Made by a program: the position numbers and the translations under genes. The notes under the pieces were generated by a model. The model did no database searches and was not told where the DNA came from. It saw only the letters and a list, made by a program, of their open reading frames with translations. Shown here piece by piece: positions 439-3,436 of a stretch of 31,024 nt of DNA; within the stretch, counting starts at the first letter, position 1; every line of letters starts with the position of its first letter. The stretch is from Escherichia coli (GTDB taxonomy: Bacteria; Pseudomonadota; Gammaproteobacteria; Enterobacterales; Enterobacteriaceae), in NCBI RefSeq assembly GCF_003334305.1, contig NZ_QOWS01000035.1; one strand, 5' to 3'.

Positions 439-545
439 TACAATGCGGGCGAAAAATAAGGATGCCCCGTTAGGGGCGTTAGCTGAGTTTTTCGCGAAAA
501 ATTCAGCTAACGCTCTCTGTAATAGTCAAATCCAGGGGATTTACC

Positions 546-2146: not shown

Positions 2147-3436
2147 ATGAAAGTATTAGTGATTGGTAACGGCGGGCGCGAGCACGCGCTGGCCTGGAAA
2201 GCGGCCCAGTCGCCGCTGGTTGAGACTGTTTTTGTTGCTCCGGGTAATGCAGGCACTGCACTGGAACCCGCGCTGCAAAACGTTGCTATTGGCGTGACCG
2301 ATATCCCGGCGCTGTTGGATTTCGCACAAAACGAAAAGATTGATCTGACCATCGTCGGCCCGGAAGCGCCGCTGGTGAAAGGCGTGGTCGATACCTTCCG
2401 CGCCGCCGGGCTGAAAATCTTCGGCCCAACCGCAGGTGCGGCCCAACTGGAAGGCTCAAAAGCGTTTACCAAAGATTTCCTGGCCCGCCATAAGATCCCT
2501 ACGGCGGAATACCAGAACTTCACCGAGGTAGAACCTGCGCTGGCGTATCTGCGTGAGAAAGGCGCGCCAATCGTCATTAAAGCGGACGGTCTGGCTGCCG
2601 GGAAAGGCGTTATCGTGGCGATGACGCTGGAAGAAGCGGAAGCGGCTGTTCACGATATGCTGGCGGGCAACGCTTTTGGCGACGCGGGTCATCGCATCGT
2701 TATCGAAGAGTTCCTCGATGGCGAAGAAGCGAGCTTTATCGTGATGGTAGACGGCGAGCATGTGCTGCCGATGGCCACCAGCCAGGATCACAAACGCGTA
2801 GGCGATAAAGATACCGGACCAAACACGGGCGGGATGGGCGCTTACTCCCCCGCGCCGGTAGTAACCGATGAAGTTCATCAGCGCACCATGGAACGTATCA
2901 TCTGGCCAACCGTGAAAGGCATGGCGGCGGAAGGCAACACCTACACCGGTTTTCTCTACGCGGGCCTGATGATCGACAAACAGGGCAATCCGAAGGTTAT
3001 CGAATTTAACTGCCGCTTTGGCGATCCAGAAACCCAGCCGATTATGCTGCGCATGAAGTCCGATCTGGTTGAGCTCTGCCTGGCGGCCTGTGAAGGCAAA
3101 CTGGACGAGAAAACGTCAGAGTGGGATGAACGCGCTTCTCTCGGCGTGGTGATGGCTGCGGGTGGATATCCGGGTGATTACCGCACCGGTGACGTGATCC
3201 ACGGCCTGCCGCTGGAAGAAGTGGCAGGCGGCAAAGTGTTCCACGCGGGCACGAAACTGGCGGATAACGAGCAGGTAGTGACCAGCGGCGGGCGCGTACT
3301 GTGCGTCACCGCGCTGGGTCATACCGTGGCAGAAGCGCAGAAACGCGCTTATGCCTTAATGACCGATATTCACTGGGACGACTGCTTCTGCCGGAAAGAT
3401 ATCGGCTGGCGCGCTATCGAACGCGAGCAGAACTAA
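2147..3436 (+). CDS. purD: phosphoribosylamine-glycine ligase (GAR synthetase)
   Basis: 429-aa ORF with ATP-grasp-type sequence, recognised as PurD; forms an operon with purH. Confidence 0.96.
   Translation: MKVLVIGNGGREHALAWKAAQSPLVETVFVAPGNAGTALEPALQNVAIGVTDIPALLDFAQNEKIDLTIVGPEAPLVKGVVDTFRAAGLKIFGPTAGAAQLEGSKAFTKDFLARHKIPTAEYQNFTEVEPALAYLREKGAPIVIKADGLAAGKGVIVAMTLEEAEAAVHDMLAGNAFGDAGHRIVIEEFLDGEEASFIVMVDGEHVLPMATSQDHKRVGDKDTGPNTGGMGAYSPAPVVTDEVHQRTMERIIWPTVKGMAAEGNTYTGFLYAGLMIDKQGNPKVIEFNCRFGDPETQPIMLRMKSDLVELCLAACEGKLDEKTSEWDERASLGVVMAAGGYPGDYRTGDVIHGLPLEEVAGGKVFHAGTKLADNEQVVTSGGRVLCVTALGHTVAEAQKRAYALMTDIHWDDCFCRKDIGWRAIEREQN

Follow-up and report, generated by a model that had tools for sequence, protein, structure and literature searches.

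Organization of the purHD locus

The window analyzed here, a 31,024-nucleotide stretch of Escherichia coli DNA, carries on its plus strand a 529-aa open reading frame at 546–2135, annotated as purH in RefSeq E. coli, followed by a 429-aa open reading frame at 2147–3436, which we take to be purD from its size and its position in the purHD operon; the two genes form the operon served by the leader described below. The PurR operator (Pur box) of the purHD promoter, GCGCAAACGTTTTCGT, lies at 423–438 on the plus strand and is the reverse complement of ACGAAAACGTTTGCGC, the purH-purD PurR site listed in PMC3159470. The −10 hexamer TACAAT (439–444, plus strand) directly follows the Pur box, is conserved at this place in all enterobacterial loci, and is part of a Pur box/−10 block that is kept as CGCAAACGTTTTCGYTACAAT across Enterobacterales loci. 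Judging from the promoter sequence, purHD transcription would start at about position 451, approximately 7 nt downstream of the −10 hexamer, and such a start would place both hairpins described below inside a 5′ UTR of approximately 95 nt. Moreover, since both lie downstream of the conserved Pur box and −10 hexamer, they should be transcribed; in the accessible part of the supplement text of one published start-site study, purH was not found. Closer to the gene, a small hairpin, AAAUCC-AGG-GGAUUU (528–542, plus strand), is predicted in both the centroid and the MFE folds. The Shine-Dalgarno sequence AGGGGA (534–539) lies within it, and the GGGAU of this hairpin is invariant in 24 species.

The left end of the window (about 1–290) is, on the minus strand, the rrnE promoter/leader region. 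A sub-threshold Rfam match to Ysr197 (Yersinia sRNA 197) covers 53–284 on the minus strand (117.5 bits, below the gathering score of 167; E = 4.5e-29); because this match falls in the rrnE promoter/leader, the Ysr197 family may partly model the conserved rrn leader. Between rrnE and purH, a double DnaA box, TTACGCACA-gag-TTATCCACA, occupies 314–338, which is a strong DnaA ChIP-seq site ‘upstream of purH’ in PMC11317965, and the box TTATCCACA is conserved in many enterobacterial loci. A patch of approximately 60 nt between the DnaA boxes and the purH promoter (344–405) differs in O157:H7 at 17 positions from both K-12 and the window, with identical flanks on both sides, and approximately 320 of 5420 E. 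coli genomes fall within a 90–95% identity band over 300–560; the patch looks like a lineage-specific replaced or hypervariable segment. From 407 to the purH ATG, K-12, O157:H7, and the window are identical. Farther along the window, three RNAs exceed their Rfam gathering scores: a TPP riboswitch at 11777–11877 (plus strand), sroH at 17570–17730 (plus strand), and a P26-family RNA at 27066–27127 (minus strand).

A near-perfect palindrome in the purH leader

A palindrome and a small adjoining hairpin lie between the Pur box/−10 block (423–444) and the purH ATG (546), where the original prediction, made from this DNA alone, had placed them. Positions 464–513 read gccccgttaggggcgttagctgagtttttcgcgaaaaattcagctaacgc, letter for letter as noted there. 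A repeat search resolved 476–513 into two arms of 19 nt each (476–494 and 495–513), which are 95% complementary with a spacer of 0 nt; these arms correspond to the predicted 17-bp arms plus the self-complementary cgcg center. The sole mismatch between the arms, G487 against T502, pairs as G·U in the sense transcript. The small hairpin, GCCCC/GTTA/GGGGC, occupies 464–477 as described, and the GC at 476–477 is common to its end and to the start of the palindrome.

The symmetry was said to exceed chance, and it does. The repeat at 476–513 ranks first among the inverted repeats of the whole 31-kb window, and when palindromes were sought with 17-nt arms and no more than one mismatch, the window yielded this site alone and 40 simulated first-order Markov windows yielded none. 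The second-best inverted repeat, at 30863–30908 (22-nt arms, 82% complementary, 2-nt spacer; AAAGCGTGCAAAAAGGGCATCA / TGATGCCCTTTTAGTGCGCATT), is probably a terminator. Additionally, the leader RNA (450–560) has a folding energy of −36.2 kcal/mol (z = −4.4), and none of 200 shuffled sequences was equally stable.

A 63-nt stretch with the palindrome was found in 5420 of 5426 complete E. coli genomes, with an identity of at least 99% in 5333, at a single locus per genome and with no annotated feature over it; it is scored at two places per genome because the palindrome matches on both strands. A dispersed repeat of the REP/BIME, ERIC, or MITE kind was rejected on the same ground, as one locus per E. 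coli genome was found even at E <= 10 with 11-nt words. A rare E. coli variant combines G460A with C493T, the latter turning the top C-G pair into U·G so that pairing is kept.

Comparative evidence for the P2 helix

In the RNA, the palindrome corresponds to a long hairpin, P2 (476–513, plus strand; 17–19 bp in E. coli with one G·U pair), which was recovered by repeat search, folding, and covariation. A scan with PurH, using one genome per species, returned 80 loci. In Enterobacteriaceae, Erwiniaceae, Yersiniaceae, and Pectobacteriaceae, the leader is built of the same parts: a G+C-rich hairpin, followed by GCGTTAnCTGA ... TCAnnTAACGC-TCT around a variable interior. The base of P2 (GCGUUAGCUGA/UCAGCUAACGC) is conserved, the interior is variable, and its central part is not conserved beyond close relatives. 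Among 31 Enterobacterales, P2 measures 38–88 nt and folds in every case as a single hairpin, and the unconserved spacer between the half-sites GCGTTAnCTGA and TCAnnTAACGC varies from 16 to 66 nt (elsewhere put at approximately 0–50 bp).

Covariation was scored in an ungapped alignment of the 15 basal P2 pairs from the 31 Enterobacterales species. The original prediction had proposed a search for compensatory changes in related purH leaders, and these were present: 7 of the 15 pairs are changed on both sides, and 91% of the cells are standard pairs. None of 500 shuffles paired as well, and sliding the partner strand by 1–3 columns left approximately 36% paired, although the shuffle statistics overstate independence because the species are related. 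Pair 7 occurs as G-C, C-G, U-A, or U-G and pair 12 as G·U, A-U, or G-C, while pair 8 is C-G, A-U, or G-C (the last in locus L136) and a C·C or C·U mismatch in about half of the species. The loops vary even among close relatives (CGCG, ACGC, CGUG, CACC, AGAG) with the flanking helix kept. As caveats, GAAA stands in for the helix interior in the trimmed alignments, A2 among them, and the left anchor was the motif match that gave the best pairing.

Folding favored the sense RNA over its reverse complement in 25 of the 31 species (mean −22.7 versus −19.3 kcal/mol; Wilcoxon p = 1e-4), the outcome expected when only the transcribed strand can accommodate G·U pairs. A covariance model (R1) built from 26 natural sequences gave one sense-strand match upstream of purH at every locus of the four families, several of them outside the seed, with scores of 30–78 bits against 12–37 bits for the antisense strand. 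R1 had no other match in the 31-kb window and none in taxa outside the four families. A metagenome scan with the pattern TAACGCTCT-N(18-48)-ATGCAACA was too loose, as approximately 9 of 120 stretches were true purH leaders. By sequence comparison, selection, both purifying and compensatory, acts on the leader structure as sense-strand RNA; the element is single-copy, specific to purH, and present in Enterobacteriaceae, Erwiniaceae, Yersiniaceae, and Pectobacteriaceae.

The upper part of P2 in Erwiniaceae and Yersiniaceae bears a hairpin that recurs across loci, in which a pyrimidine run, UAUAUA, and a purine run follow one another (as in UUCUUCUAUAUAGAAGAA and CUCUCUAUAUAGAGAG; loci L016, L021, L022, L025–L032, L034, L145, L160, and L202). 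In Yersinia thracica, the P2 apex is a 28-bp perfect palindrome; Enterobacteriaceae have no such apex. This apex could be an ancient insertion or an additional functional module.

The P1/P2 junction and the invariant tail

The small hairpin, P1 (464–477, plus strand), has the form GCCCC-GUUA-GGGGC with five G+C-rich base pairs, and it overlaps P2 by two bases, which end P1 and begin P2. A hairpin of this type, with 3–7 bp and a variable loop, abuts P2 in 28 of the 31 Enterobacterales. Compensated variants of P1 occur as CCUC/GAGG in locus L008 and as CACC/GGUG in locus L009; in two metagenomic relatives, the change to GGUG is uncompensated. The G-run at 473–475 (plus strand) can either close P1, by pairing with CCC at 466–468, or extend P2, by pairing with UCU at 514–516. 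The latter pairing is possible in 28–30 of the 31 species, and it shows no covariation because both of its sides are nearly invariant.

For the E. coli junction, four conformers are predicted within 1.6 kcal/mol (−29.7 to −28.1): P1 of 5 bp with P2 of 15 bp, P1 of 3 bp with P2 of 17 bp, P2 of 17 bp extended by GGG:UCU, and a three-way junction closed by GGA (460–462) paired with UCU. The RNAalifold consensus of leaders extended to the start codon combines the extended P2 with a pairing between CCCC and the GGGG of the Shine-Dalgarno sequence; the latter carries no real covariation because it rests on almost invariant runs. Mutating P1, P2, or the tail in silico changed the predicted accessibility of the Shine-Dalgarno sequence little (0.24–0.47), and this near-constant accessibility leaves a switch at the junction without computational support beyond the near-degenerate energies.

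The 3′ end of P2 and the pyrimidine tract that follows form a nearly invariant block, UAACGCUCU (508–516, plus strand; also given as TAACGCTCT). This block is the most conserved part of the leader, with columns T51–T59 of A2 and T55–T63 of A5 invariant or at least 90% conserved. Its partner strand, GCGUUA, is less conserved (variants GUG, ACG, AAG, and GCU), and the fact that UAACGCUCU outranks its partner in conservation hints at a sequence-specific role. The complement of the invariant tail had only chance-level matches elsewhere in the 31-kb window.

purH leaders outside the four families

A different long hairpin is found in the purH leaders of Vibrio, Aliivibrio, Enterovibrio, Photobacterium, Ferrimonas, Aeromonas, and Zobellella, downstream of a Pur-box-like site. 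Its base has the form RGG-UAUUU-NNN-AAA ... UUU-NNN-AAAUA-UCU/CCC, with two fixed mismatch positions, and its RGG:UCU/CCC pairs belong to one continuous covarying helix in the Vibrio/Aeromonas type. Over 13 sequences, 86% of the cells are paired and 10 of 19 pairs are changed on both sides, values that are biased upward because the register was picked to maximize pairing. A small upstream hairpin that competes for the G-run is frequent in these leaders. Since the enterobacterial covariance model does not detect it, we call the Vibrio-type hairpin analogous, possibly homologous, to P2.

The leaders of Morganellaceae, Budviciaceae, and Edwardsiella are long and have no R1 match, and a long hairpin is predicted in Photorhabdus and Edwardsiella. 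In Photorhabdus caribbeanensis (locus L035, about 400–560), the leader reaches approximately 250 nt through an inserted imperfect palindrome (…GAATCCCTGGGAGCATAGCGAACTATGTGACCAGGGTGAGTG…), which resembles an ERIC element and is absent from the two other Photorhabdus loci. The purH leader of Pasteurellales is short and has no long hairpin. In Vibrio ruber (locus L050), the leader is only approximately 68 nt long; the long hairpin of all other Vibrio loci is missing and the tail-like sequence ACAUCUAUUU is kept, a natural deletion. Furthermore, two reduced-genome symbionts (loci L054 and L064) retain only degenerate remains of the element. Loss or decay in these symbionts and in Vibrio ruber fits a regulatory, dispensable element.

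Comparison with known RNA classes

A search of positions 1–1500 against Rfam 15 at E <= 10 gave a single overlap with the leader, a chance match to the miRNA precursor mir-725 (23.8 bits against a gathering score of 76), and neither the whole-window scan nor the scan of eight related loci gave a gathering-level match at the purH leader. The ZTP (pfl) riboswitch was rejected, as cmscan with permissive filters returned no match and P2 is a continuous duplex. A leader peptide was also rejected: the AUG at 462 opens a frame of only three codons, AUG-CCC-CGU-UAG, with the Shine-Dalgarno-like AAGGA directly abutting it, and this AUG is missing in several genera. Finally, likenesses to the 5′ half of a tRNA (GGGGCnnUAGCUnAGU), to segments of 16S rRNA, and to integron attC ends were set aside as numerology; a plain helix encloses the bases concerned, and GTT...AAC reverses the order of the ends found in attC.

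Discussion

We consider it likely, if by no means certain, that the palindrome is the DNA image of P2, an RNA hairpin in the purHD leader, which together with P1 and the tail UAACGC-UCU forms a conserved cis-acting element with a post-transcriptional role. As in other cis-acting 5′-UTR RNAs, compensatory substitutions occur in both P2 and P1, and selection acts on the sense strand. The nature of the element thus bears out the leader-RNA hairpin of the original prediction, through compensatory changes in four families, a free loop and interior, and G·U-dependent stability on the sense strand. From its retention across enteric bacteria, the element probably matters to its hosts. The structure itself is apparently not a new sighting: in 1990, Flannigan et al. 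reportedly mapped the 5′ end of purHD mRNA by primer extension and noted there two dyad symmetries that interfere with each other. The remark that no function had been described appears right, as the searchable literature yielded no functional study of or experiment on the purH leader, and neither that literature nor Rfam held a function, a family definition, or a comparative analysis for it.

Based on these observations, the leader would act after transcription initiation and independently of the PurR operator, tuning purHD translation initiation, mRNA lifetime, or both. The most likely working part would be the junction at the base of P2, where the G-run at 473–476 would pair either with the CCCC of P1 or with the UCU of the tail, lengthening P2 to approximately 22 bp. 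This choice would decide which pyrimidine tract, CCCC or CUCU, is free near the Shine-Dalgarno sequence AGGGGA, itself held in a small hairpin. In turn, the long, stable upper part of P2, with its variable length, could insulate or clamp the leader and hinder 5′-end-dependent attack by RNase E. The half-life of purH mRNA in the wild type, approximately 10 min (PMC5694010, Supplementary Data 2), is compatible with a stabilizing leader and not diagnostic of one. A passive stabilizer needs no strong sequence conservation of the kind seen in GUUA..UGA/UCA..UAACGCUCU, which hints at a specific partner.

Such a partner is the premise of a second and less probable reading, in which the leader is the RNA operator of a putative trans-acting factor. 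This factor, which would be a protein that binds RNA, an sRNA or, with lower probability, a metabolite, would recognize GUUA-NN-UGA / UCA-NN-UAACGCUCU and exert control of purHD independent of PurR. The helix base and tail are conserved far past the needs of pairing while pairs 7–8 and the interior vary, the 3′ strand and tail are more conserved than their pairing partner, and the pyrimidine·pyrimidine mismatch at pair 8 sits in a fixed context in approximately half of the species; the two fixed mismatch positions of the Vibrio-type helices point the same way. However, there is no candidate factor, the perfect duplex of E. coli P2 has no internal loop for a ligand pocket, and no Rfam riboswitch or protein-binding leader family matches. 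CsrA was suggested by the GGA motifs at AAGGAUG (458–464) and in the GGGGAU at the Shine-Dalgarno sequence, which it might bridge via P2, but Supplementary Data 2 of PMC5694010 lists purH without a CsrA CLIP-seq peak and with a translation-efficiency logFC of 0.04, not significant, in the csrA mutant, and this candidate was therefore rejected. In a wider form, which is speculative and rather doubtful, the P1/P2 junction and the UAACGCUCU tail would be the operator of a putative regulator (protein, sRNA, or small molecule) reporting purine, AICAR, or one-carbon status, and thus a PurR-independent post-transcriptional switch for purHD in Enterobacterales and, diverged, in Vibrionales and Aeromonadales. 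If true, it would be a functional analogue of the ZTP riboswitch that guards purH in other phyla.

It is unlikely that P2 and its U-rich tail act as a leaky intrinsic terminator, or attenuator, with P1 as an overlapping antiterminator that removes the basal P2 pairs. The overlap of P1 and P2 does mean that each limits the other, and in all species the G+C-rich base of P2 (GCG/CGC) is followed by UCU and U/A-rich sequence. Under the criterion of a G+C-rich stem followed by a U-tract with at least 5 U in 8, some tails of Yersiniaceae and Erwiniaceae qualify by eye, and terminator-like tails include UCUUUUUAUU of Serratia grimesii and UCUUAUUU of Pantoea. However, the tail UCUCUGUAAU conserved in E. 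coli and all Enterobacteriaceae has only 4 U in its first eight bases, as has the E. coli tail written as UCUCUGUA, and a terminator scan made no plus-strand call at the leader. Moreover, the leader has neither a leader peptide nor an obvious sensing step, and the supplement text of an E. coli 3′-end mapping study does not mention purH as far as its four accessible files go. A minus-strand terminator formed by GCCCCTAACGGGGC and ATCCTTATTT (464–477, with a tail to approximately 454) was flagged and rejected, as its U-rich tail is not conserved in other genera and the strand asymmetry favors a sense RNA.

That P2 is an RNase III site whose cleavage governs purHD translation or decay, in the manner of the rnc and pnp leaders, appears very unlikely. 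With 17–19 contiguous base pairs, or approximately 22 with the GGG:UCU extension, P2 comes near two helical turns and near the RNase III criterion of about 20 bp or more, and a long helix is kept in all orthologues. Nevertheless, many orthologues have mismatches and bulges near the base of P2, and we know of no requirement of RNase III for sequence conservation of a helix base, such as is seen here. The palindrome is not among the RNase III sites in the main-text table of PMC5371410, and the only site reported there in the purH-rrsE intergenic region lies approximately 340 nt upstream of the purH ATG and was assigned to the rrsE rRNA precursor.

The orientation of the arms, TTTTTCG|CGAAAAA, is the reverse of that in LacI/GalR-type operators. 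It is highly improbable that the palindrome is the DNA operator of a dimeric factor other than PurR, as the original prediction had alternatively suggested, or a cruciform-forming element: the DNA symmetry is near-perfect in E. coli, a table of PMC10100675 names RbsR and PhoP as additional regulators of purHD, and DnaA binds upstream, but the gap between the conserved half-sites varies among genera, the palindrome center is not conserved past close relatives, the arm mismatches favor G·T on the sense strand (A·C on its complement), a strand bias that a DNA palindrome would not tolerate, and the DnaA double box sits separately at 314–338, which also ruled out the palindrome as a DnaA site. Because the half-site spacing is not conserved and the constraint is strand-asymmetric, a dimeric DNA operator was excluded.

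As a conserved cis-acting leader RNA, the element can be set beside several known systems. It shares with the ompA 5′ stem-loops and other obstacles to RNase E scanning a stable cis-acting stem-loop in the 5′ UTR of a housekeeping mRNA, the lack of a ligand architecture, and a variable upper stem. In contrast to these stabilizers, P1 does not sit at the inferred 5′ end but starts approximately 13 nt into the leader, and its neighbor P2 and the tail show, at the helix base and beyond, a sequence conservation that passive stabilization would not require. The start-site-dependent hairpin that sequesters the Shine-Dalgarno sequence of pyrC/pyrD and the attenuators of pyrBI/pyrE likewise belong to bistable nucleotide-biosynthesis leaders of E. 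coli and use mutually exclusive pairings of pyrimidine and purine runs near the Shine-Dalgarno sequence. However, the purH leader shows no sign of alternative starts, reiterative transcription, a leader peptide, or a canonical terminator, and conservation does not extend to the A-run with which the E. coli leader opens.

The leaders of rne (hp2), rnc, pnp, and the ribosomal-protein operators resemble the purH leader in having a long hairpin, confined to Gammaproteobacteria, whose lower stem is conserved and whose apex varies, but the purH leader has no known partner protein, and no RNase III site is reported at its position. The ZTP (pfl) riboswitch controls purH and folate genes in many other bacteria. 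The element described here lies at the same genomic position, ahead of purH, and would take the same regulatory place; in contrast, it shares no similarity in sequence or structure with the riboswitch, and P2 is a plain duplex and not a pseudoknotted two-domain fold. To our knowledge, ZTP riboswitches have not been reported in the lineages that carry the purH leader hairpins. We file the purH leader as an uncharacterized conserved cis-acting leader RNA.

The control of purHD is usually put down to PurR alone, within one of the best-studied regulons of E. coli. A conserved leader with a counterpart in vibrios and aeromonads implies an additional post-transcriptional layer on this operon, and the element is short, single-copy, and located in a genetically tractable organism, so that its role is directly testable. 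If the leader only stabilizes the mRNA, it would be a tidy textbook example; if it is the operator of a further factor, it would show how the AICAR-consuming step is adjusted in bacteria without a ZTP riboswitch.
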